The notes beneath the pieces were generated by a model, which did not search any database, had not been told where the DNA came from, and saw only the letters and a program-made list of their open reading frames with translations. From assembly GCF_049075655.1 (NCBI RefSeq), contig NZ_CP157522.1, positions 384,001 to 448,000 on the forward strand: a stretch of DNA of 64,000 bases. Reading direction: 5' to 3'. This document shows, piece by piece, positions 985 to 48,820 of the stretch. Origin of the DNA: Methanothermococcus sp. Ax23 (lineage in GTDB: Archaea > AGJL01 > Methanococci > Methanococcales > Methanococcaceae). How positions within the stretch are numbered: the stretch's first letter is position 1; each line of letters starts with the position of its first letter. The position numbers were made by a program, and so were the translations under genes.

Positions 985-2319
985 ATGGATAAGGATAATA
1001 ATAAAAATATGGATTTAATGGACGAAACTATAAAAATATCATCAGATTTAATTAAAATAAATTCAGTTAATCCGGCATTTGGTGGATTGGGGGAAATGGA
1101 AAAGGCAGAATACGTATTAACTAAATTGAATGAGTATATACAAAAGTATAATATAAAAAATTATTCAATAAAGCAATACAATACAAAGGATGATAAGGAC
1201 ATAATACGACCAAATATTGTGGCAAAGTTCGATTTTGGAAAAGATAGAACACTCCATATAATTTCTCATCTTGATACTGTTCCAGAGGGAGATTTAAATC
1301 TTTGGAACACGAATCCTTATGAGCCAGTAATTAAGGATGGGATGATATATGGAAGAGGAAGCGAAGACAACCATAAAGCAATAGTTTCATCCCTGTTATT
1401 GTTAAAAATGATTTTTGAAGATGAAAATAAAGATAAAATTCCAAAATATAATTTGTGCCTAATATTTGTATCAGATGAAGAATGCGGCAGTAATTATGGT
1501 ATTCAACATATATTAAAACTTGACAAAAACCCAAAGGGCTTTTGTAAGTCAGCGAATCCGAAGGATTCGCTTCGATATGAAAAAGAGATTTTTGATGAAA
1601 ATGATTTAATAATAATCCCAGATTTTGGAACACCTGATGGAAATTATATAGAAATAGCAGAAAAAAATATACTATGGATTAAATTTAAAATTAAAGGAAA
1701 ACAATGTCATGGAAGCACACCAAACGATGGAATAAATACCGATGTTCTAATGTTCAATTTTGCAAATAACCTTTACAATATGCTCTATACTAAATACGAC
1801 AAAAAGGATGAGTTATTTTCTCCGTCATACTCAACCTTTGAGCCTACCATGATTTTTAACAATGTTGAAAATGTGAATACCATTCCGGGATATGTGGAAT
1901 TATGCTTTGATTGTAGAATACTCCCAGATTATGATGTCGATGAGGTTTTAAAAGATATTGATGAATTTATTGGTGATTTTAAAAATAATATTGATAAATA
2001 TTTAAAATACTACGATAAAGAGGAAGAGAAAAACATATCAATTGAATATGAAATCCTACAAAAGGAGCTCTCACAAAAAACACCTGAAAACTCTGAAATA
2101 GTTGTCGAGCTCGGGGATGCCATAAAAAAGGTATTAAACAAAGAACCGATTTTATGCGGTATGGGAGGAGGCACAGTTGGAGCATTTTTAAGGGCAAAAA
2201 ACTATGATACGGTTGTTTGGGGCATTGGTGAAGAAACTGCCCATCAACCAAATGAACATATAAAACTCGAAGATTTAATAAAGATGGCTAAAACATACTA
2301 CGAAATTTTAAAAGAATGA
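985..2319 (+). CDS. M20 family metallohydrolase (DapE/ArgE-like) carrying a 19-aa in-frame insertion
   Basis: HLDTVP, YGRGSED, DEE, GKQCHGS and AHQPNE motifs; GAGG RBS before ATG 985 (track ORF starts at 973). Confidence 0.85.
   Translation: MDKDNNKNMDLMDETIKISSDLIKINSVNPAFGGLGEMEKAEYVLTKLNEYIQKYNIKNYSIKQYNTKDDKDIIRPNIVAKFDFGKDRTLHIISHLDTVPEGDLNLWNTNPYEPVIKDGMIYGRGSEDNHKAIVSSLLLLKMIFEDENKDKIPKYNLCLIFVSDEECGSNYGIQHILKLDKNPKGFCKSANPKDSLRYEKEIFDENDLIIIPDFGTPDGNYIEIAEKNILWIKFKIKGKQCHGSTPNDGINTDVLMFNFANNLYNMLYTKYDKKDELFSPSYSTFEPTMIFNNVENVNTIPGYVELCFDCRILPDYDVDEVLKDIDEFIGDFKNNIDKYLKYYDKEEEKNISIEYEILQKELSQKTPENSEIVVELGDAIKKVLNKEPILCGMGGGTVGAFLRAKNYDTVVWGIGEETAHQPNEHIKLEDLIKMAKTYYEILKE
1518..1578. 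repeat. 61-bp two-hairpin repeat, copy 1 (in-frame inside the M20 hydrolase)
   Basis: ACTTGACAAAAAC-N9-TTTTGTAAGTCAGCGAATCCGAAGGATTCGCTTCGATAT; near-identical copy at 9576-9636. Confidence 0.9.
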
Positions 2320-9575: not shown

Positions 9576-9636
9576 ACTTGACAAAAACACTTCAAGTTTT
9601 TGTAAGTCAGCGAATCCGAAGGACTCGCTTCGATAT
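9576..9636. repeat. 61-bp two-hairpin repeat, copy 2 (intergenic)
   Basis: Matches 1518-1578 except for the apical segment of hairpin 1 and one base in hairpin 2. Confidence 0.9.
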
Positions 9637-30241: not shown

Positions 30242-31162
30242 ATGAAATGCAGCATTTGTAAAAAAAACATAACTATCTATCATCAACGCCATTCTGGCTT
30301 AAACTTCTGTAAGGAGTGTTTTATAAGCTATGTAAAAAAGAAAGTTAGAAAAACTCTTGGTAAGAATATAATAAAGCAGAACATCAAAATAGGTATGGGA
30401 TTAAGCGGTGGAAAAGACAGTTTAGTAATGGCACATATCTTAAACGAATTTTACAAGCCAATACCTAACTCAAATATAGTTGGTCTTATCGTTGATGAAG
30501 GTATTGAAGGGTTTAGAAGGGATGGAATAGATGCAGCAATTAAATTTTGTGAAGAATACAACATAGAGTATAAAATAGCAACCTTTGAAGACCATATTGG
30601 GTATAATTTAGATGAAATTGTCAAAATAGCGAAAGATAAAAACCTTACAATGAACCCATGTTCATTCTGTGGAGTGATTAGAAGAAAAATATTGAATAAA
30701 ATGGCATTAAATGAAAAATGCAGCTATTTGGCAATAGGTCATAATTTAGATGATATATCCCAGGCTGTAATGATGAACTACATTGAGGGAGATATTAAAA
30801 AATTGGCAATTTTGGGGAAAAATGTAGATAATCCAATGTTTGTTAAAAGAATAAAGCCATTAAAAAACATTCCAGAAGATGAAGTTTTATTATTTGCTGA
30901 TTTGCTTGGAATGAAATATCATAAAGCACCCTGTCCATATTCCTCAATTTCATATAGGGCAGAGGTATCTGATATAGTTGATAAACTTGAAGAAAACCAT
31001 CCCGGAGCAAAATACTCCATTGTTTCAGGTTTTGAAAAACTTTTAGAATATTTGCCTGTTGAGAAGGAAATGAATGTATGTAAATACTGTAAAGACCCAT
31101 CAGCTTCTGAAATATGTAAAGTTTGCATGTTTTTAGAAAAGTTGGGCATACTTGACGTTTAA
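30242..31162 (+). CDS. tRNA 2-thiolation protein (TtuA/Ncs6, TIGR00269-like)
   Basis: N-terminal Zn finger, SGGKDS PP-loop, CSFCGV.RR, GHNLDD, CPY and C-terminal CxxC..CxxC. Confidence 0.87.
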   Translation: MKCSICKKNITIYHQRHSGLNFCKECFISYVKKKVRKTLGKNIIKQNIKIGMGLSGGKDSLVMAHILNEFYKPIPNSNIVGLIVDEGIEGFRRDGIDAAIKFCEEYNIEYKIATFEDHIGYNLDEIVKIAKDKNLTMNPCSFCGVIRRKILNKMALNEKCSYLAIGHNLDDISQAVMMNYIEGDIKKLAILGKNVDNPMFVKRIKPLKNIPEDEVLLFADLLGMKYHKAPCPYSSISYRAEVSDIVDKLEENHPGAKYSIVSGFEKLLEYLPVEKEMNVCKYCKDPSASEICKVCMFLEKLGILDV

Positions 31163-31273
31163 TCATATATATACATTAGTTTATTATTTAATTTTTTATA
31201 TGCTAATATCAAATACTCCTTATAGGGCATTATATAATTTTAGTTAATGATTATTTTGCTTATTTATTTTTAC

Positions 31274-31594
31274 GATAAACCGCCGGGAAAGCCAACGACT
31301 TCAGTCGTTATACAAAACATAGTTTTGTAAAATCTCTTACGAGATTGGATGAGAGGCGGACATTATATCGGCTAGTAAGTAGTAAAATATAAATATGTGA
31401 AGATTAGTAGTAAGTAACGCTACCAGTCCAAGTATCTATGGGTAGGGTTAGTGAAAACTCTACCGCTGGTAGTGGTTGGAAGTGCATAGCGTAGCCCTGA
31501 ACCCATTAATGGGTAGGGATAGTGGGCTTGGCCACCCGTGTAGGGTTAAACCCTACTAAAAGAACCCAACGAGTTCACTCGTTGGAGTAGGTCA
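31274..31594 (+). mobile_element. Non-autonomous IS200/IS605 derivative (PATE-like, 321 bp) of the tnpB element at 47441-48820
   Basis: TTAC|GATAAACCGCC left end and ..GGAGTAGGTCA right end match the reverse complement of the 47441-48820 ends; subterminal hairpins present; no ORF. Confidence 0.88.
31487..31594 (+). ncRNA. TnpB omegaRNA (reRNA) scaffold, orphan copy
   Basis: Colinear with the tnpB 3' end and right end (47441-47550), with compensatory stem changes. Confidence 0.65.
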
Positions 31595-32805
31595 GTGCTT
31601 AACATTTCCTCAATCCTTTCAATCTCTTCAATATCTGCATTGGTGATGGGATATTTTGGAACTGCAAAGCATTTTATTTCCTTGCTTGTTGATATTCCAT
31701 AGGTGCCAATTTCTTTTGCGATATTGATGATTTCGTTTTTATCCATTCCAATAAGTGGCCTTAATATAGGGTATGTTATTCCATTGCTTATTACAGATAT
31801 GTTTTTCAATGTTTGAGATGCAACCTGTCCTAAATTATCTCCATTTACAATAGCTTCACATTTTAGTTCTTCCGCATATTTTTCGGCAATTTTAAGCATG
31901 GTTTTTTTACAGAATATGCATATGTATTTTTCCTTTCCAATATCCTCTAAATTGCTTTTTATATTTTGTAATTCCTCTTTGTAATCCTTAACTATAAGTT
32001 TTGATGTATAATCGTAATCATTCAACACATTAAAGATTTTTTCAGTCTTTTTAAATCCTTCTTCCGACATTTTCAGATGTAAAAATACGGCATTACATCC
32101 TCTTTTGATCATCAGATATGAAGCCACTGGACTATCTATCCCATCGGAAAGCAGAACTAAAACCTTTCCCTGTGTTCCAACAGGTATTCCTCCAACTCCT
32201 TCAATCCTTTTTGTAAAAATATATGCATTATCAATTAACTCTATGCCAATATGTATATCCGGATCTTTAAGATTTACCTTTAAATCAGCATTTAATTTCA
32301 TCTTATTTTTAAGTTTATCAAATTCATTTATTATTACTGCCCCAATATGCCTGCTTAATTCCATTGAATTCATATTAAATTGCTTTTTAATCCTTTGAGT
32401 TTTTACTGCAAAAGTTACGGTTTTATTGACACCAATATTTGCATTGATGTATTGGGTGAGCTCACCCTTAAATGCACCAATTGAAAAATTCTCAATATCT
32501 TTTATATTTAAATCACATTCTAAACATGGACTAAATGAAACTATTCCAGGGATTTTTCTTAAAAGTTCAAGTGATTTATCCATATTATATTTATCAACAG
32601 TCAAAAGCAATCTTGTATGAAGAATCTCCACTTCTGATTCAATATCATATTTTTTAAGCGTCATTTCAATATTATTTTTAAGTATTTGCTCAAATCTCTT
32701 TCTTGTATGTCTTGACTTTGTTCCTATTTCTCCATACCTAATTATTATTTTGTTGTTTGAGTCTTTAATGCTATTATTTTTAATTTCATTTCCTTCAACA
32801 TCCAA
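31546..32805 (-). CDS. thiI: tRNA 4-thiouridine sulfurtransferase ThiI (C-terminus extended by the inserted element)
   Basis: IIRYGEIGTKS, THUMP domain, GGIPVGTQGK, LLSDGIDSPVA, GQVASQT. Confidence 0.92.
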   Translation of the reverse strand: MDVEGNEIKNNSIKDSNNKIIIRYGEIGTKSRHTRKRFEQILKNNIEMTLKKYDIESEVEILHTRLLLTVDKYNMDKSLELLRKIPGIVSFSPCLECDLNIKDIENFSIGAFKGELTQYINANIGVNKTVTFAVKTQRIKKQFNMNSMELSRHIGAVIINEFDKLKNKMKLNADLKVNLKDPDIHIGIELIDNAYIFTKRIEGVGGIPVGTQGKVLVLLSDGIDSPVASYLMIKRGCNAVFLHLKMSEEGFKKTEKIFNVLNDYDYTSKLIVKDYKEELQNIKSNLEDIGKEKYICIFCKKTMLKIAEKYAEELKCEAIVNGDNLGQVASQTLKNISVISNGITYPILRPLIGMDKNEIINIAKEIGTYGISTSKEIKCFAVPKYPITNADIEEIERIEEMLSTDLLQRVNSLGSFSRV

Positions 32806-32906: not shown

Positions 32907-33905
32907 ATGATTGATATAAAAGAATTAAAAAAATACTGTAATCCATCTTATTTAACCATTCGAAATGACAAACTAATAATAAACAATAAACGATTAGCAA
33001 GATTATCCAAAGACAAGATAAAAAAAATAGAAGAAGATTTTAGAATCCCAGTGGTTTATTCAAGAAGCTATGAAGATATATCTCAAAAGATGGGAAGATA
33101 TATCTCAAAACATAAGATAATAAGCCCCAGAGACAAAATAATTGTGGGATTAAGCGGTGGAAAAGACAGTTTAGCATTACTGCATCTTTTAGAACCATAC
33201 AGGAGAAGATATGGAATAGAAATTTACGCCATTACAATTGATTTGAACATAAGTAATATTCGACCTTGGAGTGCAGATAACAAAAACATGGACGTTATAA
33301 AAAAACACTGCGAAAGCTTGAATATTCCCCACAAAATTATAGGTTTCGATAAAGATGTTGTCCAGATGTCCAAGATTTTATCGGAAAACACAAAAGGCAT
33401 TGAATATTCCCCATGCTTTTCCTGTTCCGTTGTAAGGAGACATATTCTAACAAATTTTGCCATGGAATTGCTGGAAAATGAAGATACAAATAATAATGGC
33501 GACATAAGCAAAATAAAAATATGTCTTGGTCATACATTAGAAGACAATTCCGACACAATATTGGCAAATATACTTAAAGGAGATGTAATAAAAACATTGG
33601 AACCTTTAAAGAACTTTGATGAAGCAGTATTTGATTTCAAAGAGTTTAAACTTAAATTACAGAAAAGCACAATTATTAGGCCGCTGTTAAGTGTATCTGA
33701 AAAAGATATTGTAAAGGCACTTAATGAATGTAATGTGGATTACTATAAAGATAAGGATGAATGTCCATACAGTAGAAATAAGGGAGATAGTATAAGAAAA
33801 AAAAGCCATGAAGTTCTTGATTATCTTGAAAAAGATGTTGAAAATATAAGAGAAATGATTGTTTCATCCATTTTAAAATCCATAGATTATTATAAAAATA
33901 GATAA
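32907..33905 (+). CDS. TtcA/PP-loop family tRNA thiolation-type ATPase
   Basis: SGGKDS, PCFSCSVVRR, GHTLED, IIRPL, CPY. Confidence 0.75.
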   Translation: MIDIKELKKYCNPSYLTIRNDKLIINNKRLARLSKDKIKKIEEDFRIPVVYSRSYEDISQKMGRYISKHKIISPRDKIIVGLSGGKDSLALLHLLEPYRRRYGIEIYAITIDLNISNIRPWSADNKNMDVIKKHCESLNIPHKIIGFDKDVVQMSKILSENTKGIEYSPCFSCSVVRRHILTNFAMELLENEDTNNNGDISKIKICLGHTLEDNSDTILANILKGDVIKTLEPLKNFDEAVFDFKEFKLKLQKSTIIRPLLSVSEKDIVKALNECNVDYYKDKDECPYSRNKGDSIRKKSHEVLDYLEKDVENIREMIVSSILKSIDYYKNR

Positions 33906-47430: not shown

Positions 47431-47440
47431 TATTAGGATC

Positions 47441-48820
47441 TGACATACTCCCACGACTGAAGTCGTGGGGTTCTTTAGCAGGGTCTAACCCTACATGGGT
47501 TGCCAAGCCCACTACCCCTATCTCCGTTTAGGAGATTCAGGGCTACGCTACATGAAAATACTTTTTTTAAAATATTCAAAGCCCCGTTAATATCAGCATT
47601 CAACACAATCCCGCAATTACTGCATACATATAAACCCCTATACTTCCTATTACTCTTTTTAACCACACCACAATTACTACAAGTTTGAGAAGTATAAGAT
47701 TCATTAACCTGTTCTACTGTTAATCCCCTTTCCTCTGCTTTATACTGTATCATACTTACTAACCTACCAAAAGGTATCTTGTGTATTTTCTCGTTGTTCT
47801 TTCTACCAATATCAATACTTGAAATGCCCTTGTTTAACTCACCAATGACAACCCTTGAAACTTTGTTATCCACTGCAAAATCGATAATCATCTTACTGAC
47901 CTTATGAAGATAATCCTTAGTGTAGTTTTTCTCCTTTACTGTTAAGTGTGATAATCTTTTGTTATTCTTTAACTCCTGTTTTGTTAGTGCAGACTGTATT
48001 TTCCCCTTTGTTTTAGCAAACCATCGGAATTTAGAAATTAATCTCCTTCCATCGTAGATTACTGCACTGCCCGTGTTAGTTACTGCGGTCGCTAAATTCT
48101 TAATTCCTAAATCAATGCTCAGTATATTGCTTTCTTTAACTGGTTTTTGAATTACTGGTTTCTTATATATTAAATGAAGCATATAATAAGTTATACCATA
48201 GATTTTATGTGGAACTATTTCAACTTCTTTAACCTGCATGGTATCAAGCGGTAGAGTTTTCGATAACTCTACCCATAAGTACTTGGACTTGATACCATGC
48301 TTCTCTTTGAGATAGTTTTTAGTTTGTTTAGATAATGATAACCTTAACTTATTGCCTATGATTTTGAAACCTTGCTTCTTCCATTTTACTGGAAAATGCC
48401 CGTCTTTTGGTTGGTATCGTGGTCTTTTAGTGTGCTGTTTGAAAAAGTTATCCCATGCTATTGTGAGTCTTTGGCATACTGCCTGTGCTGACTGTGAGTG
48501 CAGGTTTTTAAACCAGAAGTTGTTCTTCATTTGAACATCTATTTTATTTGGTTTAATATTTCGTTGTATTACTTTATAATTGGATGTATTCCAGAGTTTT
48601 GATGCTGAGTAGGTTAAATGGTTTATGATTGTTAATTGTTCATTGGTTAGTTTTCTTGTTAGGTTTATTGTCAGCACTCTGGTTACTTGCATGGAATTCA
48701 CCAAATTTATATATGCCATTATTCTAATTACACTCATATATTATGTAGTTGAGCATATAAAAAAATGATGTCCGCCTATCATCCAACGATTAAAATCGTT
48801 GGCTTTCTCGGCGGTTTATC
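47441..48820 (-). mobile_element. IS200/IS605 family (IS1341 group, tnpB only) element inserted 3' of TTAC
   Basis: Left-end hairpin CCAACGAT-TTTA-ATCGTTGG, right-end hairpin CCACGAC-TTCA-GTCGTGG, GTCA terminus; ends shared with 31274-31594. Confidence 0.88.
47475..48692 (-). CDS. tnpB: RNA-guided endonuclease TnpB (intact)
   Basis: RuvC D (SIDLG), E (IGEL), D (NADING); Zn finger CSNC..CSNC; GGTGA RBS before ATG 48692. Confidence 0.92.
   Translation of the reverse strand: MQVTRVLTINLTRKLTNEQLTIINHLTYSASKLWNTSNYKVIQRNIKPNKIDVQMKNNFWFKNLHSQSAQAVCQRLTIAWDNFFKQHTKRPRYQPKDGHFPVKWKKQGFKIIGNKLRLSLSKQTKNYLKEKHGIKSKYLWVELSKTLPLDTMQVKEVEIVPHKIYGITYYMLHLIYKKPVIQKPVKESNILSIDLGIKNLATAVTNTGSAVIYDGRRLISKFRWFAKTKGKIQSALTKQELKNNKRLSHLTVKEKNYTKDYLHKVSKMIIDFAVDNKVSRVVIGELNKGISSIDIGRKNNEKIHKIPFGRLVSMIQYKAEERGLTVEQVNESYTSQTCSNCGVVKKSNRKYRGLYVCSNCGIVLNADINGALNILKKVFSCSVALNLLNGDRGSGLGNPCRVRPC

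Follow-up and report, generated by a model that had tools for sequence, protein, structure and literature searches.

A gene-less IS605-family element of Methanothermococcus sp. Ax23, a probable guide-RNA element, that retains a folded segment of the tnpB coding sequence

The mini element at thiI and its family

The window, a 64 000 nt stretch of the Methanothermococcus sp. Ax23 genome, carries at the 3' end of thiI a gene-less copy of the IS605/tnpB family, 322 bp in length (the mini, 31274–31595), as well as a full-length, tnpB-bearing copy of the same family (Table 1). An earlier sequence-only reading of this DNA had noticed that both ends are common to the two elements, and the inverted matches bear this out, with TTAC preceding both left ends; it had also given the mini a length of 321 bp and a guide beginning GTGCTT.... 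In the 34 paired copies found in the genome, TTAC stands before the element (34/34), the element ends in TCAG (34/34) and the next base is variable, so the mini ends at 31595 and the guide, the origin of which in the right flank stands as proposed, begins at 31596 (TGCTT...). Indeed, the closest thiI orthologue (L126, 79–85% identical), which ends LNSK*, fits only a 31595/31596 boundary, and the reconstructed empty site reads LSSKNK*. The fixed tetranucleotide in all paired copies and the empty orthologue show insertion 3' of TTAC without target duplication. The mini and thiI have 50 nt in common, and the last thiI codons now come from the element, with the stop inside it, so that the tail SKNK has given way to 16 element-encoded residues (net +12). 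No ORF of at least 80 aa was found within the mini itself, nor any CRISPR array in the window; the mini guide derives from the flank. In the left end we take AAAG to be the guide tetranucleotide, under the guide/cleavage pairing rule from IS608 work.

The Ax23 genome (G000; 1.67 Mb, 98.9% complete) was compared with relatives (G-numbered genomes) and with further loci (L-numbered); the nearest named homologues of its TnpB place the host in Methanococcales. Scanning G000 for both ends returned the 34 paired elements, namely 27 short ones, one short one interrupted by another IS and six bearing tnpB; three further tnpB copies, located with BLAST, were included manually, giving nine full-length copies. 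The 27 minis (283–405 bp) are gene-less, dispersed and distinct in their flanks, while the interrupted one (G000:C1:1542609-1544034) holds another IS, with a 322-aa ORF, upstream of its own TATA box, and one degenerate copy lies near G000:514050. Common ends with subterminal hairpins, a fixed target, the lack of a gene and the dispersal of copies are as expected of PATEs, or non-autonomous IS200/IS605 elements. Only two of the nine full-length copies have an intact tnpB frame; in the other seven a double-hairpin insert of 47 bp interrupts it. Two profiles for Y1 TnpA gave no match in the G000 assembly (98.9% complete), and excision producing empty sites may therefore have ceased; among 39 relatives, three (G015, G024 and G032) have an intact TnpA immediately next to a tnpB of this type, and three more have a broken or partial one. 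The near-identity of the minis implies recent movement.

Table 1. Features of the window and of the second IS605 family in G000
Feature	Position	Strand	Notes
TTAC target (TAM), unduplicated	31270..31273	+	TTAC 34/34, TTTAC 27/34 paired copies; empty-site orthologue
Left end	31274..31366	+	AAAG, presumed guide tetranucleotide, 31288-31291; subterminal hairpin 31294-31309; remainder to 31366
Double-hairpin insert, 37 bp, within left-end hairpin	31310..31346	+	Optional among copies
Mini TATA-like box TATAAATA	31388..31395	+	31 nt before the G following the first stem base
Module I	31418..31474	+	Outer stem, 13-nt one-sided bulge, 9-bp inner stem, 6-nt loop; from inside tnpB coding sequence
Module II: right-end omegaRNA scaffold	31488..31595	+	GAAC guide 31562-31565, terminal hairpin, TCAG end, predicted loop/3'-end pseudoknot
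Predicted guide from flank	31596..31615	+	Antisense to thiI 3' end
thiI	31546..32805	-	TIGR00342 390.7 bits, residues 20-403; catalytic region intact
Full-length partner, tnpB only, 1381 bp	47440..48820	-	Both-ends pairing
tnpB, 405 aa	47475..48692	-	NF040570 202.9 bits; RuvC D194/E285/D367 present
Module I within tnpB (codons ~131-152)	48236..48300	-	687 nt upstream of module II (starts 47549)
Second IS605 family, full copy L130	G000:C1:372234-373553		TAM TCAC, AmaTnpB-like
Second-family minis (7)	G000:C1 77936, 165433, 591113, 1266359, 1457755, 1587471, 1599378		

Several smaller observations concern inserts and insertion sites. The 37-bp left-end insert is missing from 6 of the 27 minis and from the window's full copy, and double-hairpin inserts of 37–50 bp occupy element ends and break the seven G000 tnpB copies near codon 77; such inserts also enter the module I loop in G015, G017, G023, G027, G029, G032 and G036, leaving the stems undisturbed. 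A 61-nt double-hairpin repeat is present twice in the window (1518-1578 and 9576-9636; 87% alike). The reshuffling of optional modules among near-identical IS605 derivatives in G000 suggests gene conversion. Five minis (G000:C1 524127, 993048, 1135161, 1247043 and 1520822) appear well inside reconstructed empty-site reading frames and are, from rough ORF calls, possible gene disruptions.

A fold common to the mini and the tnpB coding sequence

The sequence-only reading held that the mini had lost all coding sequence and had gained a new 5' domain absent from the full element. Neither statement survives comparison with tnpB: a segment of the mini matches the gene at window positions 48247-48289 (88% over 43 nt), and the supposed novelty, here named module I, is a 60-nt two-helix hairpin from tnpB codons ~131–152, which in the gene lies ~690 nt upstream of the scaffold. 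The structured segment described after the box is itself present, as a nested hairpin at 31418-31474 (z -4.55, with 0/200 shuffles as good), but the full element has the same fold (z -7.59).

When homologous tnpB genes were drawn from related genomes and metagenome contigs, the fold was found to be kept in register in 49 of 55 distinct homologous segments; of the six exceptions, two carry hairpin inserts within the loop and the remaining four are 32–35% identical, although L100, L109 and the related L105, which are among these four, are still matched by the covariance model. In a set of 42 equal-length sequences (39 coding and three mini), 94.6% of 922 cells are paired, against 33–44% in slid controls, 16 of 22 pairs have changed on both sides, and 0/500 shuffles reach the covariation score, in a test that is inflated by the relatedness of the sequences. 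The covariation spans archaeal and bacterial tnpB genes. Module I is the only consensus fold in the tnpB codon alignment, at -18.3 kcal/mol, windows elsewhere reaching -1.1 kcal/mol at best (36 non-redundant genes out of 58, the last codons, with module II, being too gapped to score). Its pairs link different codon positions and force amino-acid changes, and Ser136 is always encoded by TCC (34/34). A separate candidate, mimicry of the TAM by the hairpin tip, was rejected, TTAC being found in only 12 of 42 sequences.

Within G000 the 27 minis differ by 22 substitutions on average, yet 0/459 module I pair cells are broken, and the fraction of variable columns is 0.22 in module I versus 0.73 in the linker. 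The pairing counts largely refute the idea that the mini is a neutrally decaying deletion remnant. The failure to find TnpA and the degenerate copy near G000:514050 would fit such decay, but against it stand the unbroken pairing and the recurrence of the same layout in eight other genomes, and we regard it as very improbable.

That recurrence emerged from a covariance model of module I, which matches 12 of 40 Methanococcales genomes. Among the 30 loci returned, 15 lower-scoring ones from other genomes were inspected and 14 of these, from eight genomes, lie outside tnpB. All 14 have the same order: TTAC or a similar target, left end, TATA-like box, module I, a short linker, module II and right end; the TATA-then-module-I layout is thus seen in minis of nine genomes including G000. 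The ends of the other genomes' minis differ from those of G000 and track the local full elements, and a CCAG/CTGG stem and linker shared among the minis suggest one old mini lineage and not independent origins. Two derivatives, L009 and L004, were found to be without module I, and L009 has both ends.

Putative promoter, predicted RNA and insertion orientation

The TATAAATA box is present at 31388-31395 as had been noted. The distance from TATA box to stem is 31 nt in 27/27 G000 copies and 30 nt in three other lineages, while the spacer itself varies, and from this fixed distance, read with archaeal promoter spacing, the start of the mini RNA is predicted at the first base of module I (near 31418). 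No significant match to the mini promoter region was found in the full copies. Two vent metatranscriptomes have contigs over the element with a summed depth that is higher from 31418 on, the contigs showing no level, strand or ends; the rise is seen in a DNA run too, because the full copies share module I. In one raw-read run no reads fell over the element.

Module I folds as DNA as well (z -3.7 and -8.1), and a third recognition hairpin for TnpA or the replication fork, with any transcript incidental, would account for this and for the retention of module I in mobile minis, as a need in cis for transposition. We think this distinctly improbable: many cells are G-U wobbles, one of them nearly invariant (41/42), a TATA box stands at a fixed distance before module I, and some derivatives with both ends, such as L009, do without it. 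To our knowledge, TnpA requires only the element ends.

Downstream of module I, the right-end scaffold has a terminal hairpin and a guide from the flank, as in TnpB omegaRNA, and the right end, the predicted pseudoknot partners and the flank junction are intact in all copies. By eye, in an informal count, the loop and the 3' end vary together (UGGC with GUCA, UUGAAC with GUUCAA). Changes in the scaffold stems had been described as compensatory and peculiar to the mini; both variants exist but are distributed among mini and full copies. Pairing of the module I bulge with the loop of module II, as a pseudoknot, was considered and set aside, since the loop follows the 3' end instead and no covariation between the modules appeared. 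No Watson–Crick covariation between modules I and II was found (43 rows, effective number about 16; the bulge bases, being invariant, could not reveal any). Module II of the relatives resembles sot0042 from model position 1, below threshold: the gathering thresholds of Rfam sot0042 (RF02656) and HgcC (RF00062) were not reached by the relatives (39.6 of 88 and 29.8 of 50 bits), and in the window Rfam returned nothing at threshold except a tRNA, with no match in the mini.

The gene 3' end is faced by 26/28 minis versus 1/9 full copies (Fisher p 1e-5, on a rough ORF map), eight of the nine full copies being directed at the gene start. Against an intergenic TTAC background of 47%, 16 of 18 intergenic minis point toward the gene 3' end (counted from the listing). 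Such a bias is expected if minis carry an active outward promoter, and it fits selection against that promoter firing into genes. It also bears on thiI, for which a specific role of this copy had been proposed. That the copy is kept for an antisense RNA or for an altered C-terminus is scarcely credible: the predicted RNA does enter the thiI 3' end, the protein does gain a net 12 residues and the same insertion occurs on contigs of other populations, but the antisense orientation is family-wide (26/28) and thiI orthologue tails vary freely. No perfect second genomic site was found for any copy's guide; for the window guide, the whole genome holds no second TTAC-plus-guide site closer than 4 mismatches in 16 nt. 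A search for an empty thiI allele found no element-skipping joint in eight runs, seven with coverage (18 unaligned letters at one X1 contig end lay outside the comparison). thiI is part of a tRNA thiolation gene cluster: on either side of it lie an NcsA/TtuA-like gene and a paralogue with a 78-nt stretch in common (30242-31162 and 32907-33905).

Related systems and the possible roles of module I

That omegaRNAs can stand alone and act in trans, and that PATEs encode such RNAs, has already been stated (PMC10691335; 10.1101/2023.03.14.532601). As far as the accessible text of these papers goes, such RNAs resemble the mini as mobilized guide cassettes with a flank guide and no effector, but a promoter of their own together with a coding-derived module is not mentioned there, and the orientation bias of our minis, opposite to that of full copies, is a further difference. 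A literature search in which few subscription papers were covered yielded no report of minis retaining a tnpB-internal RNA module, and the accessible sections of PMC13639567, PMC13622181 and PMC12558985 contain nothing on a coding-internal module. In our assessment the mini is genuine and under selection; as a non-autonomous guide-RNA element it belongs to a known kind, but the part that it has retained is undescribed.

The nearest parallel is in Halobacterium salinarum, where, according to the available part of PMC4615843, PATEs (VNG_R6334/VNG_R0052) likewise have fused IS200/IS605 ends, no ORF and many copies. The RNA VNG_R6334 was mapped at 268030-268304 (275 nt; PMC4615843), and by our reading of its locus, a pNRC200 PATE that we found via the sot0042 family, the start lies about 25 nt after a TATA-like box, with ~105 nt of RNA ahead of module II and a flank tail of 18 nt. 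TATA-like box, extra 5' domain, scaffold family and flank tail are thus as in the mini. The mini 5' domain, however, is traced to mid-tnpB, whereas that of the haloarchaeal PATE had no match to seven haloarchaeal-plasmid tnpB loci or to the module I model. By the same partial source, the sot0042 RNA of the full element accumulates at 206 nt, from about the start of module II (PMC4615843). ISDra2 omegaRNA/reRNA, in the portion of PMC10097598 available, is like the mini in its right-end hairpin and flank guide and has a 3'-end pseudoknot of the kind predicted for the mini, but its functional RNA and protein regions barely overlap, whereas here a conserved RNA fold lies within the folded-core coding region.

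The proposal of a gene-less parasite that expresses its own guide for TnpB in trans has gained from the fixed TATA spacing, the unbroken pairs, the orientation bias, the two intact catalytic TnpB copies and the Halobacterium RNA; its 'new 5' domain' is wrong. We consider it likely, from sequence comparison, that a transcribed mini captures TnpB in trans and directs the cutting of element-free sites. The mini's own TATA promoter would yield an RNA of ~200 nt comprising module I, the module II scaffold and the flank guide; this would load TnpB made by the few intact full-length copies, and the complex would cut TTTAC plus flank on element-free chromosomes. In a host that we assume to be polyploid, a filled chromosome copy could be at hand. 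Repair from such a copy would then restore the mini, as in the model of 10.1101/2023.03.14.532601, of which part was available.

A second IS605 family of G000 (Table 1) offers an analogy to module I; a search of 39 related genomes at E 1e-60 returned no match to its TnpB. All seven of its minis keep an AAGGCAC and ACGGTT motif pair from the tnpB coding sequence, where the motifs flank a long stem beside RuvC-II, about 400–430 nt from the end; the pair is present in 7/9 second-family homologues (for L153 the scan picked up a second motif lying closer) and as eight unrelated pairs elsewhere in G000. Window folding of nine gapped homologues found no consensus fold in this segment, only the motif pair being shown. 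In the accessible text of PMC10278001, AmaTnpB (TAM TCAC) cleaves with a 126-nt omegaRNA, and its mRNA region 751-875 inhibits cleavage in trans, an effect that the authors suggested arises from pairing with the omegaRNA and not from binding of the protein. By eye, that region encodes the same peptide stretch and motif pair as the second family, so far as the partial source allows, and the minis retain a shortened version of this homologous coding-internal segment; the 126-nt omegaRNA is without the pair yet cleaves (PMC10278001, in part). Like module I, the AmaTnpB region is an RNA feature lying within a tnpB coding sequence, and it influences the nuclease, as is proposed for module I; it differs in clade, in position (beside RuvC-II versus codons ~131–152) and in fold, and module I is shown by covariation. 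Retention by minis goes unmentioned in the available AmaTnpB text. To carry these results over to module I is to argue by analogy.

Our working hypothesis, to which we give an even chance, is that module I is an RNA element bound by TnpB on its own mRNA, which would recruit the protein to the precursor RNA and restrain or time its activity. Placed directly 5' of the mini scaffold, it is proposed to let the mini compete for TnpB, and cutting as such probably does not require it. We favour a recruiter over one half of a scaffold because no pairing between the modules was detected, the Halobacterium module II accumulates alone and the AmaTnpB segment is both dispensable and inhibitory.

The alternative is a bipartite guide, in which module I would be an obligatory 5' half of the omegaRNA like Cas12f tracrRNA stem 2, supplied in the full element from ~690 nt upstream, looped or separately processed, with the mini a fused single guide. 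The order and adjacency of the modules are fixed in all minis, and both profile and fold place the window TnpB (predicted model pLDDT 87.5; nearest folds AsCas12f) closer to AsCas12f than to the TnpB of ISDra2; a two-copy TnpB prediction scored 0.00 and is uninformative in either direction. In Cas12f, stem 2, which is long and kinked, is docked against the second monomer, and RhCas12f requires it (PMC13186708, in part). Cas12f stem 2 and the TranC split reRNA (Jin et al. 2025, as cited in PMC13639567) resemble the mini in having a kinked 5' long stem beside a pseudoknot core, which for the mini is a prediction. Unlike those systems, the mini has no CRISPR array and no detected repeat:anti-repeat pairing, and the parts of the full element lie on one mRNA. 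The lack of inter-module covariation noted above and the 206-nt sot0042 RNA count against a bipartite guide, as does a distant orthologue that is active, with its gene co-expressed, on a 170-nt scaffold starting at a similar motif (PMC10278001, accessible part), and we consider it unlikely. Less probable again is a decoy, by which mini RNA would soak up or dampen TnpB and so limit the damage that dozens of guides could do to the host genome. In its favour are the inhibition of cleavage by the homologous AmaTnpB segment, in the partial source just cited, and the excess of 27 minis over two intact family tnpB genes; however, right end, predicted pseudoknot partners and flank junction are intact in all copies, and homing benefits a selfish element more.

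TnpB is usually seen as a protein with a 3' omegaRNA, and a covarying mid-gene fold that gene-less parasites have kept behind a putative promoter indicates that a further RNA part matters. With this finding the capture of TnpB in trans by parasitic guides can be put to the test, and the unexplained AmaTnpB inhibitory region gains an alternative interpretation; module I may account for orthologues that fail in screens with codon-optimized genes or scaffold-only guides, it bears on the origin of split tracrRNA guides, and the mini offers a ready scaffold of ~180 nt for thermophilic TnpB. Only tentatively do we suggest the wider picture, that TnpB systems hide guide-RNP modules in coding sequence, the guide of a Cas12f-like clade being bipartite, the minis natural single-guide fusions and the second family a repetition with another module. 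Were this picture true, minis could serve as a general map of hidden parts, revealing the minimal RNA.

Two observations from haloarchaeal and plasmid loci may be added. The 5' domain of the haloarchaeal PATE, ~105 nt behind a TATA-like box, is conserved and covarying in five loci (L159 and L163–L166), and at L147:1590-1780, on an archaeal plasmid, a short repeat array, CRISPR-like by eye, directly follows a tnpB-like gene.
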